Shown here: positions 17,375-24,655 of the stretch, piece by piece
How positions within the stretch are numbered: the first letter of the stretch is position 1
Layout of the letters: each line of letters begins with the position of its first letter
Assembly: GCA_963708075.1 (NCBI GenBank)
Contig: OY970194.1
Span: 4,992,001 to 5,056,000 of the forward strand
Source: Sedimentisphaerales bacterium
GTDB taxonomy: Bacteria; Planctomycetota; Phycisphaerae; Sedimentisphaerales; Anaerobacaceae
DNA: 64,000 nucleotides
Direction: 5' to 3'
Position numbers and translations under genes: made by a program
Notes under the pieces: model-generated
The model's input: only the letters and a program-made list of their open reading frames with translations
Databases searched by the model: none
Told to the model about the DNA's origin: nothing

Positions 17375-18926
17375 ATGATGAAGAATCGAACAGACAAGAA
17401 AGGTACAACACGGCGCGAATTCATGAGTCTTCTCGGAGCAGGCGCGGCGGCATGTGTCACGAGTCCGGCTCTGGCGGCAGAAGGCCAGTCGGCACTTGAA
17501 GTGGACCCCAAGCCTCGATTTGAGCTGTCGCCGTATCTGTACATGCAATTCATGGAGCCGCTGGGCGTTACGGATAGCTCGGTGGATGCCGCCTGGGACT
17601 TCGCGGCGGACCGCTGGCGCGAGGACGTGGTCGGGATCACGCAGGAACTGGCCCCCCCACTCATGCGATGGGGAGGCTGCTTCTGTTCCTATTACCGCTG
17701 GAAGGAGGGGGTCGGCCCCATGCACCAGCGACGTCCCATGCTCAATCAGCTCTGGGGCGGGATCTACATGAACCAGGTGGGAACGCACGAGTTCGCGGAC
17801 TTCTGCCGGCGCGTGGGAGCGGACCCTTTGATCGTGGTGAACTTCGAATCGGACGGGCGCGAGCACTGGCGGCGCTCGCCGAAGGGCGACATCCGATCCG
17901 CCGGACCGGAAGAAGCCGCCGAGTGGGTCCGCTACTGCAATGCCGCTGATTGCGCAGAGCGGCGCGAGCACGGCAGGACGGAGCCCTACAACGTCCGCCT
18001 CTGGCAGATCGGCAACGAGAACCTCTTACGACCGCAACGGATTCGATTGCGAGACCGCCGCCCGGCGCACCGTCGATTTCGCGCGGGCGATGCGCAAGGA
18101 AGATCCCGACGTTCAACTCATCGGCTGGGGCGACAGCGGCTGGGCGGGCCGCATGCTCGAAATCGCCGGCGAGCCGCTTCAGTACATCGCCTTCCATCAC
18201 ATGTTCAATCCCGATCGCGATATGCGGAACTCGCCGCTGCGAGGGATCGAGTATCGCAAAGACCCGGCCCGAACCTGGGAGCGGCTGATGAACGCGGCCA
18301 AGGTCCACGACGCCCGCATTCGGCAGATGCGCGAGCAGACAACCGGATATGACACACCACTGGCTATGACAGAATGTCACTTCGCCCTGCCCGGCCGCAA
18401 TCGATGCGATGTTCTCTCCACGTGGGCGGCGGGGGTCGCCAACGCCAGGCTCCTGAATGTGCATGAGCGTCACGGCGACAGGCTGAAGATCGCCACACTC
18501 GCCGACTTCTGCGGCACACGCTGGCAGGTCAACGCGATCATGATCCCGGTCCCCGGCGGCAAGTCCTACATGATGCCGGTGGCGCTGGTCATGGCCCTGT
18601 ACCGCCATCACACCGGGCGGCAGGCGGTCTCCGTGACTAAGGCGCCCGAGGACCTCGATCTGACGGCCAGTCGGACCGGCGACCGCCTGTTCCTCCACGT
18701 CGTCAACACCAGCCGGGAGTGGCCCGTCACCACGCGGCTGGCGGTAAACGGTATGCACATCCAGCGCGGAAGCATCTTTCAGCTCGCCGCGGACCCGGAA
18801 TTTGAGGTCATCGAGACCCGGGCCAACGAGATTGCCCCCATGCAGAAGGAATTGCCGGCCGACGGACTCTGGACCTTCCCAGCCGCCTCCGTCTCAGCAG
18901 TAGAGTTGGACGTGCAGCAGGCATAG
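17375..18926 (+). CDS. Tat-exported alpha-L-arabinofuranosidase (GH51), apparent +1 frameshift at ~18020
   Basis: TRREFM signal, MRWGGCF, NQVGTHEF, WQIGNE|TSY, LAMTECH. The ORFs join after removing one A in GAGAACC. Confidence 0.88.
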
Positions 18927-18991: not shown

Positions 18992-19019
18992 TTGCGTTTC
19001 CTGCATCCGGCCATAGAAT
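18992..19019 (+). promoter_or_regulatory. Putative sigma70 promoter giving a near-leaderless mRNA
   Basis: TTGCGT-N16-TAGAAT with only 9 nt before the ATG at 19029 and no SD. Confidence 0.4.
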
Positions 19020-19028
19020 GTCGTCATA

Positions 19029-20015
19029 ATGCTCGAGCTGCAAGAGAACATAGCGAAAGCTCAAACGGCGACGGCCAAGCTGCGCCACAAGGTGGTGGGC
19101 AAGGCCGCCCGGGAGTATTTCAGCGTCCTTGACCCGATCCGCAAGCCCGGCGCTGGCGATTTCGAGGCGGCCGGGGCCCGCGCACATGCGGTGCTCAAAC
19201 AGGAACTGCTCTCGGCTGAAACCATTGCCCTCATCAATGGCGGGACGAAGCTCGACGACGACGCTGTGGCGGCGGTAGCGTTGGGCTTCGACGGGATGGC
19301 CCGGCCGGTGCGAATCCCCGCTCCCGTCGTGACCGCGGAGACGAAGACGATCACGCTGGCCCTCGCCGCCGCGGCCGGCGCCGTGGGTGGCATGTTGGGC
19401 CTGGCGCCGCTGCTGCGGCTGGCGTTCGACGTGCGAGACCTCGGGCTGGTGCTGGGCGGGCCGCTGGGGGCCCTGATCGCTGTGCTCGCGGTGCATCGAC
19501 TGGCCCGGCTGCGATTGCTCACAAGGATCTTGCCTTGGTTCTTTATCCGGCCGAAGGCATTGCGCGGCGCGGTGCGCAGCGAGCATGAGAAAGCCGTCCG
19601 CGCGTCGATTGAACAGTGGGTGGACTGGGCGGTGTCGATGCTGGCCGTCCTGTGTCTCTACCGGTCCGGCCGGCCCCAGTCGCAGACAGACTGGGACAAG
19701 GCCCTGCGAAAGATCAGCAAACTGATCTATACGCTTCATCGCACGCCCGCCGAGTCGCTGCCTGTCGTCGCCCACGAACTCGTCCAGGAAGCCAAGAACA
19801 GCGGCTTCGAGGGTCTGGAAGGCTCGCCGGCGTTCCTCGGAACCGGCCGCGAGGAAAAAGAGACGATTTGCTGGAGGCAGGACCTCCAGAATAAATACGA
19901 GACCTTCGGCCATATCACCGAAGGCGATCAGGTCATGGTGGAGCGACCCGCCGTCGTCCTCGGCGGCGAGGTTGTGCAGCGCGGCCTCGTCAGGAAGGTT
20001 CGCGACAGGAAATAA
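19029..20015 (+). CDS. Membrane protein with GrpE-like C-terminus
   Basis: Two hydrophobic helices (aa ~108-155); C-terminus EGDQVMVERPAVVLGGEVVQRGLVR resembles the GrpE beta-head; stop lies 1 nt before the Hsp70 ATG. Confidence 0.6.
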   Translation: MLELQENIAKAQTATAKLRHKVVGKAAREYFSVLDPIRKPGAGDFEAAGARAHAVLKQELLSAETIALINGGTKLDDDAVAAVALGFDGMARPVRIPAPVVTAETKTITLALAAAAGAVGGMLGLAPLLRLAFDVRDLGLVLGGPLGALIAVLAVHRLARLRLLTRILPWFFIRPKALRGAVRSEHEKAVRASIEQWVDWAVSMLAVLCLYRSGRPQSQTDWDKALRKISKLIYTLHRTPAESLPVVAHELVQEAKNSGFEGLEGSPAFLGTGREEKETICWRQDLQNKYETFGHITEGDQVMVERPAVVLGGEVVQRGLVRKVRDRK

Positions 20016-20016
20016 G

Positions 20017-22035
20017 ATGGAAACTGCGAATATCCTGGCTATCGATTTCGGCACGACGAACACGTACTTCAGCAAGTGTCCGGCGGACCAGATTTCGCCC
20101 GTCGGGATCGATTTCGGCACGGGGCGGGACGGCCTGCCGACAGCCATCCTCTACCGTGGCGAGCGCGAGCCGCTGGTGGGCGAGCCGGCGCTGCACGAGT
20201 ACGGCGAAGCCTCGCCCGAGGAGCGTGCGGGCTATCAGCTCCGCACACAGTTCAAGCCGGACATTGTCGAGAGCCGCGAGGCGGCAAAAGCCGCAACGGA
20301 TTTCCTGCGTGTCGTGGTCGCCCAGGCGCAGCGCCAGCATATCGCGCTGGACCCTGCAAAGTATGATGTCATCTGCGGCGTTCCGAGCGAAGCACAGGAC
20401 CCCTTTCGAACGAAGCTGTCACAAATCGCCCGGACCGCCGGGTACGGCGACGTGCGGCTCGTCGATGAGCCCAAGGGCGCCCTGCTGCATCACCTCTGGC
20501 ACAAGGATTTCTCCCCGGGGGAGGCCCGCCGGGGCATCCTCGTCATCGACTTCGGCGGCGGGACCTGCGACTTCGCCCTGCTCCAGAGCCTTCAGGTCAC
20601 CCACTCCTGGGGCGATATGGAATTAGGCGGCCGGCTCTTCGACGATCTGTTCTTTCAATGGTTCGTCGAGCAGAACCCCGCGGCGCCGAAGGCCATGGAG
20701 AAGGCGGGGGATGCATACTACGTGCACTCGTACTTGTGCCGCGAGGTCAAGGAGTTCTTCTCGCTGACGATGGCGCGGGACCGCACTGAGACGATCAACA
20801 AATCCATCGGACGCTACGGCAGCCTGAAGGGCATGACCTGGGCCGGCTTTCTCGACCGGGCCCAGCGCTATACGCCGAGCCCCACGTTTATCCGTCATAT
20901 GCAGGACATGGGCGTCCGGACGGACAGATTCCGGATTGGAATCAAGGGCACCGATTCCGAATCCGCAATCCGCAATCCGCAATCCGCAATCGATCTTATT
21001 GGCTGGTTCCGTATGTCCCTGTCCCAGGGGTTGTCCGAGCAGGCGGTGGATTCGAGCCAGATCAGCCGGGTGATCCTGGCGGGCGGGAGCAGTCAATGGC
21101 CCTTCGTGCCCGACGTGGTGACCGAGACGCTCGGGGTCGAGCGGTCGTGCCTGATGCGAAGCGACCGGCCCTACGCGGTGATCGCGCAGGGCTTGTCCAT
21201 CCTGCCCGCGCTGCAGAAGAAGTTCGATGAGACAAGGGATAAGCTTCGCAGCGATTTGCCCCAATTCTGCCGGATGCGCGTGCGGCCGCTGGTGGAGCGG
21301 GTGACCGATAGCTACGTCGCCGGCGTCGCCGCCGATGTCACGTCGGAGCTGTTCGACAAGGCGATCCGGCCGATCCTGGAACAGTTCAGACAGCAGGGGG
21401 GCTCGACGCGGGCGCTGCGGGAGTCCATCGCCGCCGAGGTGAAGGCACATGAGGGCAGACTTCGCGAGATCATCGAGGACCGGATGCAGACGCTTCGGCG
21501 CGGGCTGCCGGGCCAGCTCAATGAGATGCTCAAGGCGTGGTTCGAGTCCTACGGGCTCAGTGTAGGCGAGAGGCCCATCCAAGAGGCGCAGCAGGTGTCG
21601 GTTCCAGAGGAGATGATTCAGCCGATTTCGCCGGACCTGTACGGCGCGGTTATGGAAACGGTGGGATGGTTCGTCGTCGCGCTGGCGACCACGGCCGGCG
21701 CCGCGATCCTCGGTGGCGGAGGCATCCACCTGCTCGCCGCGGGTCCCGTCGGATGGATCGCCGGGGCGGTCCTCAGCGCCGTCGTGGCCTTCCTCGCCGT
21801 CCGTTACGGCATCGCACGGGCTCAGGAAATCGCCGAAACCTGGAACGCGCCCGCCTGGCTCGTCAAAAACGTCCTCCTGCCCTCCAGAATCGCCAGGATG
21901 CGGACGGACTTCCAGCAACGGCTCCAGGAAACCCTCCGTCGCGAGACTACCGCCCTCCAGACTCAGCTCGAAGAGAAGATCGGCGAAATCACCGAACGCC
22001 AAATCGACGGCCTTTCCGAAATCGCCCAACTATAA
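20017..22035 (+). CDS. Atypical Hsp70/actin-fold ATPase with helical C-terminus and hydrophobic hairpin
   Basis: IDFGTTNT, DEPKGA, IDFGGGTCD, LGGRLFD, LAGGSSQWP; no DnaK substrate-binding domain; GWFVVALA..AGPVGWIAGAVLSAVVAFLAV membrane segment. Confidence 0.85.
   Translation: METANILAIDFGTTNTYFSKCPADQISPVGIDFGTGRDGLPTAILYRGEREPLVGEPALHEYGEASPEERAGYQLRTQFKPDIVESREAAKAATDFLRVVVAQAQRQHIALDPAKYDVICGVPSEAQDPFRTKLSQIARTAGYGDVRLVDEPKGALLHHLWHKDFSPGEARRGILVIDFGGGTCDFALLQSLQVTHSWGDMELGGRLFDDLFFQWFVEQNPAAPKAMEKAGDAYYVHSYLCREVKEFFSLTMARDRTETINKSIGRYGSLKGMTWAGFLDRAQRYTPSPTFIRHMQDMGVRTDRFRIGIKGTDSESAIRNPQSAIDLIGWFRMSLSQGLSEQAVDSSQISRVILAGGSSQWPFVPDVVTETLGVERSCLMRSDRPYAVIAQGLSILPALQKKFDETRDKLRSDLPQFCRMRVRPLVERVTDSYVAGVAADVTSELFDKAIRPILEQFRQQGGSTRALRESIAAEVKAHEGRLREIIEDRMQTLRRGLPGQLNEMLKAWFESYGLSVGERPIQEAQQVSVPEEMIQPISPDLYGAVMETVGWFVVALATTAGAAILGGGGIHLLAAGPVGWIAGAVLSAVVAFLAVRYGIARAQEIAETWNAPAWLVKNVLLPSRIARMRTDFQQRLQETLRRETTALQTQLEEKIGEITERQIDGLSEIAQL
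20924..20991. repeat. Heptamer (AATCCGC)n palindromic insert inside the Hsp70 CDS
   Basis: AATCCGC x4 from 20960, translated ESAIRNPQSAID; degenerate complementary arm CAGATTCCGGATT upstream. Confidence 0.75.
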
Positions 22036-22104: not shown

Positions 22105-23250
22105 AGTAGGTAGCCAAAAGTTTTCACAGGAACGATTCTCTTCGCGTGTATGATGGGGTACATGCGAAGAACGAAGAGCGCCTCAGAACGTGGTTTCGAT
22201 CGATATGATAAACATCGTCTTACGCGGGCCTTACAGGGGGTCGCTGACATTCGCACCTACCGGCGTATCGAAGCGATCCTGTTGGTGGCCCAGGGTCGGA
22301 CGGTTCCGGAAGCAGCGCAGATCACCGGGACCCGGCCGTGGAGCGTCTATCGCTGGGTGCGGGCCTATCTGCACACCCATTGTCCAGACCGCCTGCAGGA
22401 CGCACCGCGTTCCGGACGGCCTCCGGTCGCCACGCCGATCACGGACGCCCGTCTGGTACGCGAGTTCCGCCGGGACCCGATGCGTTTGGGCTATCGCGCC
22501 ACGGGTTGGACGGTGTCCTTGCTGGCAGATCACCTCCAGCAAAGGTACGGGTGTGCAATCTCGCCTCGTACCCTGCGGCGGCGGATGCGGGACTTGGATC
22601 TGCGGTGGAAACGTCCCCGGTATGTCTATGCGACCAAGGACCCGAACCGAGCCCAGAAAAAGGGGGCCTGGTTCGCCGCCTGAAACGGATGCCGGCGCTG
22701 GCGGTGCTGTTGTTTTCGGATGCGACCATCCTCCGCTGGTTTCCGCCCTTGCGCTATGTGTGGGCGTTTCGCGGCGAACAGGCGCAGGTCAAGATCACGG
22801 GTCAAAACGACAAACGGGTTCTGTTCGGCACGATCAATCCACGAACCGGACACCGGGTGGTCCTGCGTCGGCCCCGCCAGCGGCAAGAGGACTTTCAAGC
22901 CTTCCTGCGGGAGTTGCGGCGACGGTATCCCGGACGCCCGATTTGGCTGTTGCTGGACAAGGCCTCTTTTCATCAGGCGATCAAAAGCCAACGACTGGCC
23001 ACCCACTTGGAGGTGACCCTCTTGTGGTTGCCGAAGCAGTGCCCGGAACTGAACTCTCAGGATCATCTCTGGAAGGAGTTGAAACGGTTGATTGCGGCCA
23101 ATCGCCAGTTCCAAACGATTGATGATGAGGCGGCCTACGCGGAACAGTGGCTCTTGGGACTAACTGCGACCCAGGGCCTCCGCAAAGCCGGTGTCTTGTC
23201 GGCGGATTTCTGGCTCAAGGCTTTTGTGTGAAGACTTTTGGCTACCTACT
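22105..23250 (+). mobile_element. IS630-family insertion sequence, complete
   Basis: 24-bp TIRs AGTAGGTAGCCAAAAGTTTTCACA / TGTGAAGACTTTTGGCTACCTACT (1 mismatch), flanked by a TA duplication (CTAG target). Confidence 0.95.
22150..23231 (+). CDS. IS630 transposase (HTH ORF plus catalytic ORF joined by -1 frameshift)
   Basis: ORF A 22150-22683 (HTH, RSGRPP, W....LA, WKRP); slippery AAAAAGGGGG at 22657-22666; ORF B motifs FSDAT, LLDKASFH, PELNSQD. Confidence 0.9.
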
Positions 23251-23440: not shown

Positions 23441-24655
23441 CTACGCGGTGTCCATCTGGTCGATATAGGTCTTCATCCGGGCCAGGCGGGCCTTGAAGGC
23501 GTTGTACAGGCCGTCGGAATTCTCGCGCAGCGTGCGCTTGGAGTTCGTGTGCGGATTGACGGACGTGGCGTAATCCGCCTGCTTGATGATCTCCGGCGGG
23601 ATGGAGTCGGCGCCGGACAGGGCCCCGGAGATGCCCCCGGCGACGGCGGTGAGGCAATCGGTGTCCCGGCCCATGTTCACGCCGGCTTTCATCGCCTCCC
23701 ACGTGTTGCCCTTCGTCATTCGCAGGACGCAGATGGCCTTGGTGACAATCTCGTTGGCGTAGCTGTGGGCGTAGACGATCCCCGTGCCGCTGTAGAGGGC
23801 GTCGAATTTCTGGCGCATCTGGCGCACGTCGCCGCAATCGGCCGTGTGCTTCAGGGCCCGCTCGATCTCGCCACGAATGCCCGCCGGGCGGAAGAAACGG
23901 GTATCCACCTTATCGCAGTTGTCGAAGACCGCCCCGATCACGCTGTCCACGGTGGCGCCGCTCTTCGTGGCAGCGGCGATGGCCGTGACGGTGACCTCGG
24001 CCCAGAGAATGCCCCGGCTGTTGGCCGTATTGTAGAGCTGACCGACCTCGCGAATGTCGTCGATGGCTCCTCGGATGTCGCCCGCGTTGATCAGGCCGAT
24101 CGGGTGGCACGAGCGCGAGAGGGAGACCAGGCCGGAGTAGTCGCAGTATTTGCCGATATCACAGGCCGGGATATGCGTCTTGGCCATCGCCAGCAGCGCC
24201 CCCTCGAACGGCTCGGAGACCAGCCCGGCCGCGTTGGGATTCATGTGGTCCACCCACGCGCGGCGCAGGTCCTCCGCATCGATGCGGTCCTGCTTCTCAA
24301 GGATCGCGGTGATCATGAGCTTCTGCCGCTCGACGCCGTCTTCGGTCGTCCCGGGCTCGCGGACCCAGTCTTTCTTGCCGTAGTGTGAGTACGGCAGCAG
24401 CTTATCCAGCAGCCCATGCTCCTTCTCGATCCGCTCATACGACCACCCTTCCACCGGCGCCCCCATGGCCGAGCCGATGTGACAGCCGGCGATGCACCCG
24501 AAGAACTTGTCGCGCAGGCTGATCCCGCCCGCATTTGCCCTGGCCTCCTTCGGCGACTCCGCCCCGAGCGCCTTGCCCGCCGAGACTGCCGCGGCAGTCG
24601 CCATTGTCCCTGCCAGGAATGATCGCCGTGCCATCGTTTCGCCATGCCCGTTCAT
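23441..24655 (-). CDS. Tat-exported ADP-ribosylglycohydrolase-family protein
   Basis: ARRSFLAG signal, IGSAMGAPVEG, GTTEDG, NMGRDTDC..AVAGGISGA. Confidence 0.85.
   Translation of the reverse strand: MNGHGETMARRSFLAGTMATAAAVSAGKALGAESPKEARANAGGISLRDKFFGCIAGCHIGSAMGAPVEGWSYERIEKEHGLLDKLLPYSHYGKKDWVREPGTTEDGVERQKLMITAILEKQDRIDAEDLRRAWVDHMNPNAAGLVSEPFEGALLAMAKTHIPACDIGKYCDYSGLVSLSRSCHPIGLINAGDIRGAIDDIREVGQLYNTANSRGILWAEVTVTAIAAATKSGATVDSVIGAVFDNCDKVDTRFFRPAGIRGEIERALKHTADCGDVRQMRQKFDALYSGTGIVYAHSYANEIVTKAICVLRMTKGNTWEAMKAGVNMGRDTDCLTAVAGGISGALSGADSIPPEIIKQADYATSVNPHTNSKRTLRENSDGLYNAFKARLARMKTYIDQMDTA

Follow-up and report, generated by a model that had tools for sequence, protein, structure and literature searches.

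A two-gene module of planctomycetes with an Hsp70-type ATPase and a predicted GrpE-like head and dynamin-like trunks

Two adjacent genes, here called A and B, lie at positions 19,029 to 22,035 of a 64,000-nucleotide (nt) stretch of contig OY970194.1 from a Sedimentisphaerales bacterium, referred to below as the window. Gene B encodes an Hsp70-type ATPase with intact nucleotide-binding motifs and no substrate-binding domain; it directly follows gene A, and both products contain a hydrophobic hairpin. Models and profiles additionally predict a dynamin-like trunk in each protein and a GrpE-like head at the end of A. We consider that there is about an even chance that A and B are a dynamin-like pair for membrane remodelling or repair, driven by an Hsp70 ATPase with its own exchange factor.

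Both genes are on the forward strand, as are all the parts of them described here. Gene A (19029..20015) codes for 328 residues, with a predicted dynamin-like trunk bearing a hydrophobic hairpin and then the GrpE-like head, and gene B (20017..22035) codes for 672 residues, with an Hsp70-type ATPase domain fused to a helical stalk that also carries a hydrophobic hairpin. A single base separates them at the junction TAA-G-ATG, exactly as an earlier interpretation made without database searches (the sequence-only reading) had placed it, coordinates included.

Residues 1–404 of B (20017..21228) form an Hsp70-fold nucleotide-binding domain with D10, G12, T13, K80, E151, D178 and the motifs GGGT and GGSS. 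Pfam HSP70 matches B at E 1.6e-13, in the ATPase part only, and Foldseek and VIA-align both put Hsp70s first for the model of B, VIA-align giving Z 30.7 for BiP (root-mean-square deviation, rmsd, 3.0; 334 residues aligned) and Z 25.5 for MreB. Residues D10, G12, T13, K80, E151, D178, G180–T183 and G356–S359 are invariant in 36/36 aligned homologues, and we take them to correspond to the DnaK positions for catalysis and nucleotide binding; for K80 this equivalence rests on motif position, because hhalign put a gap near it. B thus contains the actin-fold domain with phosphate and adenosine motifs that is expected of an Hsp70 chaperone. The conserved DnaK linker and the beta-sandwich substrate-binding domain were found neither in the alignment with DnaK nor in the model: a profile of B aligns with the DnaK of the same genome over B 1–398 and DnaK 1–375 and stops there, and the model has no strand of at least three residues beyond residue 381, being helical from residue 387 onward. 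These results support the view that B is a putative ATPase with an Hsp70-fold domain that lacks the substrate-binding domain, and they bear out the description of intact Hsp70/actin motifs without a DnaK beta-sandwich that had been made from the letters.

The absence of an adjacent J-domain gene, also pointed out in that description, was borne out too. No such gene adjoins the pair at this locus or among 78 flanking open reading frames (ORFs) from 20 loci (the longest non-overlapping frames up to 4 kb away, cut at 600 residues, some of them spurious), although a distant DnaJ could still act; the DnaJ-domain matches of the source genome are elsewhere, at C1:2.52 and 4.12 Mb. This genome has separate DnaK, DnaJ and GrpE, plus a second GrpE-Hsp70 locus (C1:7259399-7261837), apart from dnaK and grpE, in which a GrpE-like gene is followed by a frameshifted full-type Hsp70. 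B was rejected as an ordinary DnaK or MreB, both of which the genome encodes separately.

The remainder of B (residues 405–672, 21229..22032) is an all-helical tail that appears LeoBC-like from the model and the PADLOC LeoBC profile. The model (mean predicted local distance difference test score, pLDDT, 81) contains helices at 387–460, 464–511 and 541–564, the hairpin, and a return helix at 622–665, with low confidence at the hairpin (565–599). Hydropathy and conserved glycines mark residues 548–602 (21658..21822) as a Gly-rich, paddle-like hydrophobic hairpin containing AGPVGWIAGAVL. The tail of some 270 helical residues with a Gly-rich hairpin and a return helix, anticipated in the sequence-only reading, was therefore recovered in the model, which is all-helical after residue 387. 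PADLOC LeoBC matches the tail in 18/22 members, at E 4.6e-10 in the best case, and LeoB does so in eight; the LeoBC match of the query B covers profile positions 364–495 of 601, and PADLOC LeoA and PDC-M09A match the tail as well. These matches, diffuse as their signal is, support a relationship of the B tail to the dynamin-like LeoBC, in line with the dynamin-type tail proposed earlier. Sequence searches of the PDB with profiles of A and of the B tail returned nothing under E 0.03.

Protein A has no match in Pfam, NCBIfam or PADLOC and belongs to no library family. Its model (mean pLDDT 79, 60 sequences) consists of three helical runs with a hairpin at 107–159 and a return helix at 181–214, followed by helices at 221–238 and 241–257 and a small beta domain at 279–323. 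Residues 1–216 (19029..19676) model as a helical bundle closest to the stalks or trunks of the dynamin family: in a VIA-align search against 48,161 chains the top six were all dynamin-family proteins (Z 7.1–8.6, rmsd 3.7–5.6, 122–138 residues aligned), namely Cj-DLP1 (Z 8.6, rmsd 3.7, 122 aligned), MxB (7.9 and 7.6), Drp1 (7.5), IniA (7.2) and SynDLP (7.1). OPA1, twice, and Mgm1 appeared lower, the family accounting for nine of the best 50 matches, and in a second search five of the top six were from the same family (IniA, MxA twice, BDLP and Mgm1). The range of Cj-DLP1 matched by A, residues 514–670, is enclosed by its trunk, residues 470–695 (PMC6104087; this and the other papers are cited for the accessible part of their text). 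The weight of the match is in one superfamily occupying the top ranks and not in the Z itself; Foldseek with the A model gave nothing significant.

The hairpin of A (residues 107–159, 19347..19505) is Gly/Ala-rich and hydrophobic by hydropathy, and 96/104 full-length relatives of A have at least two hydrophobic segments. The hairpins of A and B are alike (hhalign probability 79–88% over 51–54 columns, which composition could partly explain), and both A (107–159) and B (548–602) have the dynamin paddle arrangement of a hydrophobic hairpin followed by a long return helix. Residues 1–216 of A, in which the sequence-only reading had missed such a feature, thus model as a trunk of the dynamin-like kind, its tip formed by the hairpin. 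Since this region best matches dynamin stalks, both subunits look like dynamin trunks without a GTPase.

At its C-terminal end (residues 223–328, 19695..20012) A is predicted by the model and VIA-align to have two helices and a small beta domain resembling GrpE. Thermus GrpE (3a6m_A) aligned with this part at Z 4.8, below a confident score (rmsd 3.8, 85 residues aligned, 15% identity), and was the only one of 50 listed matches to cover the beta domain; no GrpE was among the best 50 matches of the wide structural search with A, where the lowest listed Z was 5.4. Where GrpE dimerises through a long N-terminal coiled coil, the model of A instead shows a hairpin-bearing trunk. Most residues that are invariant in A fall within the head (E250, G259, F260, W282, Y290, G299, D300, G319 and R322). 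The GrpE-like C-terminus claimed in the sequence-only reading therefore stands in part: the fold is found over 85 residues at Z 4.8, whereas most sequence-profile tests went against it. We call the head GrpE-like by fold and context, and not by sequence, because the profile tests were mostly negative and the structural match is modest; the assignment is accordingly a modest one. Prediction of a complex between B 1–410 and A 176–328 scored 0.06 against a mark of 0.32, which counts neither way.

Wherever a locus allowed both genes to be looked for, A and B occurred together. Metagenome contigs scanned with A yielded 47 loci; B lies within 228 nt 3′ of A in 44/44 of those with 150 nt or more of downstream sequence. 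Among 150 other genomes of the order, A was present in 8/43 of the same family and in 0/107 of the remainder, and B adjoins A in 8/8 of the carriers. Four matches to A appeared in 300 other genomes of the phylum; three have B directly 3′ (34–48% identity), and the fourth is spurious, this weak match in G069 (E 9.4e-4) having been dropped when neither A nor B was found at its locus. Starting from B, A is upstream in 4/5 genome loci, the fifth beginning 107 nt from a contig end. A profile of the B tail gave six matches in 5/400 other genomes of the phylum, all fused to the ATPase domain, with A upstream in five; the sixth runs into a contig edge. This neighbourhood survey, one of the checks proposed with the sequence-only reading, supports A and B as a dedicated two-gene module, as had been suggested there. 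No third conserved gene emerged when the flanks of 63 loci were clustered, the commonest real neighbours being genes for an ADP-ribosylglycohydrolase (about 10/63 loci) and an arabinofuranosidase (about 9/63). At one locus (L012:11925-13835, G039) a hydrophobic ORF of 636 residues with no Pfam match is directly 3′ of B, and it is absent at other loci.

A profile search with A retrieved 341 representatives at 50% identity, 248 of them at E ≤1e-10; these come without names or gene context, and the pairing counts above cover the metagenome and genome loci. Many distant relatives (P0325, P0337, P0338, P0364 and similar ones) have 100–230 extra N-terminal residues with three to six hydrophobic segments and no Pfam match. 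The named close relatives of the pair belong to Sedimentisphaerales and Phycisphaerae, within Planctomycetota, and the range beyond this phylum consists of one ESM Atlas entry (a cluster of 67, most commonly Cyanobacteriota, score 0.95). Full-length relatives of the pair were not found in plasmids or viral contigs. Plasmid and viral Hsp70 matches were rejected as relatives, belonging to unrelated systems without the B tail or gene A. One Anabaena plasmid locus (L115:7010-13094), unrelated to the A/B pair, has two small GTPase-like genes alongside an Hsp70 that lacks the substrate domain, and resembles a GTPase-centric conflict system.

The predicted dynamin-like stalk tipped by a hairpin in both proteins suggests that A and B probably serve to reshape or repair membranes, using ATP and not GTP. 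A and B would sit, via their hairpins, on the cytoplasmic face of the inner membrane and would co-assemble as bacterial dynamin pairs do. Movement of the ATPase lobes of B may tilt its trunk, the first helix of which (387–460) continues straight from the ATPase domain in the model; the GrpE-like head of A would release ADP and so reset B, and ATP turnover in B would stand in for the GTP cycle of dynamin. Trunk tilting could then bend, tether or seal the membrane, in what would probably be envelope maintenance and not phage defence. Planctomycetes have an unusual membrane organisation.

Several results weigh against this reading. Z values of 7–9 for helical bundles, a range that the tool calls ambiguous, may mirror a common arrangement, and the ranking of dynamin folds concerns A 1–216, the likeness of the B tail coming from the LeoBC profile and the model of whole B. 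The Leo signal of the B tail is diffuse: the profiles miss the 140 residues before the hairpin (0/14) and the hairpin alone (0/4). Leo profiles match 0/60 distant relatives of A. None of 10 planctomycete dynamin-like proteins was matched significantly by profiles of the B tail and the A trunk; one of them ranked first among non-self sequences by whole-sequence score (E 1.4e-4, ahead of 6,818 decoy ORFs), its best domain having E 0.16. As for the head, Foldseek compared A with GrpE at E 0.95, and Pfam GrpE matched 0/110 distant and 0/60 aligned relatives of A, giving no sequence match to the GrpE family. Four hhalign profile comparisons were made between A and 30 planctomycete GrpEs; three gave probabilities of 0.3–1.2% and the fourth, mastered on the most divergent member, only 5%, with a colinear alignment of 68 columns that outscored 60/60 column shuffles.

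In bacteria, dynamin genes mostly occur as operon pairs (PMC6104087), and dynamin-like proteins possess a trunk whose tip binds lipid (PMC6104087, PMC4159319). The A/B pair resembles the paired bacterial dynamins (LeoA/LeoBC, that is Eleos, Cj-DLP1/2 of Campylobacter, IniA and BDLP1) in its tandem genes and in the succession of a predicted trunk, Gly-rich hydrophobic tip and return helix, the B tail fitting the LeoBC profile and the N-terminal part of A fitting their trunks by fold. It differs from them in that neither A nor B matches Dynamin_N or another GTPase, the N-terminal P-loop GTPase of dynamins being absent, while the actin-fold, Hsp70-type ATPase is on B alone and the end of A is a predicted GrpE-like head; Eleos, moreover, consists of two GTPase-bearing dynamins enriched in defence islands, whereas the A/B loci seen are outside such islands. 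With DnaK/GrpE and with HscA and HscC the pair shares an Hsp70-fold domain with intact motifs and a partner in which a helix pair and beta head like those of GrpE are predicted, but it has neither linker and substrate domain nor a J-protein in the locus, and both its proteins carry membrane hairpins. Without a GTPase and without a substrate domain, the pair is therefore neither a dynamin nor an Hsp70 chaperone, and as far as can be inferred by analogy it would work like a dynamin pair.

Links between GTPases and Hsp70s in gene neighbourhoods have been reported: in the 'chaperone group' of cyanobacterial dynamin loci a DnaK-domain gene lies downstream of the dynamin (PMC5827413), and HSP70, GrpE and HSP70 without peptide-binding domain occur in about 14% of the neighbourhoods of GAP1-N2 GTPase conflict systems (PMC7159879). 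Those systems have separate, intact GTPases, unlike A/B, which lacks a GTPase and has its Hsp70- and GrpE-like parts joined to the trunks within two genes. A description of the A/B pair was not found in open full text, a scope without subscription journals and preprint supplements; the supplements of PMC7159879 and PMC5827413 could list such loci. The source genome and five other carriers gave only short P-loop matches to Dynamin_N, and Pfam found no dynamin GTPase among the 78 flanking ORFs. A general rule that A/B takes the place of dynamins in the genomes that carry it was rejected, as full-length dynamin domains are encoded elsewhere in four distant carriers.

A tentative explanation, to which we give somewhat less than an even chance, is that motors were swapped: the GTPase domains of an ancestral dynamin pair would have been replaced, one by an Hsp70 ATPase and the other by a GrpE head, so that ATP would drive trunk movement, polymer assembly and remodelling. 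A possible origin is an operon of two dynamins, Hsp70 and GrpE that collapsed into two fusions. At one locus (L128:1-3992, G126) a dynamin-like gene is followed by an ORF that weakly matches the ATPase domain of B (E 5e-6 among 98 ORFs, no Pfam match), and no GrpE stands beside planctomycete dynamins in 10 fetched loci; with this one weak dynamin-ATPase neighbour and no GrpE, the fusion origin is kept as a hypothesis. Known dynamin-family remodellers have a GTPase head as their motor. If the swap is true, the mechanics of dynamin form a module that a different motor can drive, and the Hsp70 ATPase domain gains a mechanical function that needs no client. The family is of some size, with 341 clusters at 50% identity, and lacks annotation; the two-gene unit should be easy to reconstitute.

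The matches of the B tail to PADLOC LeoBC, LeoB, LeoA and PDC-M09A could also indicate an anti-phage system, in which the pair, in the manner of the two-gene dynamin system Eleos/LeoABC, would sense infection and damage or seal the membrane. Protection against jumbo phages by Leo-like dynamin pairs has been reported (10.1101/2022.05.11.491447), the spread of A/B within the order is patchy (8/43 and 0/107, as above), and one locus (L031) is beside an integrase. Nevertheless, this option, raised in the sequence-only reading, gets no support from the gene neighbourhood and seems unlikely: PADLOC at 1e-8 matched 4/78 flanking ORFs, with generic domains only (nuclease, NUDIX, kinase, ThiF), and Pfam identified metabolic and surface-protein genes (CTP synthase, dihydroorotase, glycosidases), against 60% defence co-location for the two-gene dynamin system in the same paper. 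The G+C content of the pair is that of the window, and the lack of full-length relatives in plasmids and viral contigs points in the same direction. We also find it improbable that the pair is a membrane-tethered switch for protein handling or signalling that acts on a protein client in extraction, assembly or quality control, its helical tails being mere anchors or spacers. The ATPase domain of B is indeed closest to Hsp70s, the sequence links of the helical tails to dynamins are weak, and HscC has been proposed to act at the membrane with tail-anchored co-chaperones (PMC8215388); but B has no substrate-binding domain or DnaK linker, no J-domain or conserved client gene is nearby, and a plain anchor would leave the dynamin-type trunk of A unexplained.

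Gly-rich hairpins in both proteins would also suit a two-component, ATPase-gated former of pores or ion leaks of the helical-hairpin type, whose dynamin likeness would be that of a generic helical bundle. Pore proteins of the ClyA family and ExbB/TolQ are among the weak top Foldseek matches of A (E 0.15–0.9), but all of them are non-significant (rmsd 19–29) and the full structural aligner puts dynamin stalks first in 6/6, so we hold this to be very unlikely. Little probability is likewise given to a dynamin-like ATPase pair in which the C-terminal domain of A serves for assembly and its GrpE likeness is chance or a relic. Such a domain would fit a GrpE match of Z 4.8 only and mostly negative profile tests; it fits less well with a match that takes in both the helix pair and the beta head and reaches the C-terminus, with a head that holds most invariant residues of A, and with its being always encoded beside an Hsp70-fold domain.

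Upstream of the remodelling or repair pair proposed here, a putative promoter-like site, TTGCGT-N16-TAGAAT, is at 18992..19019 on the forward strand, 9 nt 5′ of the start of gene A. The promoter of its own that the sequence-only reading gave to the pair was only partly substantiated: a consensus scan found no promoter at the locus, where this site scores under the threshold, whereas TAGAAT recurs 9–43 nt 5′ of the start in 16/44 distinct upstream 50-mers (counted by eye), which are kin sequences and not independent. The sequence between TAGAAT and the start differs among these related 50-mers. Within gene B, a short tandem DNA repeat (20955-20990) produces a low-confidence insert at about residues 306–322 that is missing from most homologues (659 residues).

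The G+C content of the pair, about 0.64, is the same as that of the surrounding DNA. Its 5′ neighbour (17375-18926) is an alpha-L-arabinofuranosidase-like gene split over two frames, which may be an assembly frameshift; at locus L025 an intact homologue of 536 residues lies upstream of the pair. Directly 3′ of gene B, a transposase in two frames (helix-turn-helix and DDE_3 domains; 22150-23231), presumably IS630-like, has been inserted. Further on (23441-24655) is an ADP-ribosylglycohydrolase-family gene that is convergent on the pair in about 10/63 loci, probably by synteny among close kin. At L031:2531-8985 the integrase adjoining the pair is of the phage type, and an ORF that by eye is reverse-transcriptase-like lies further upstream.

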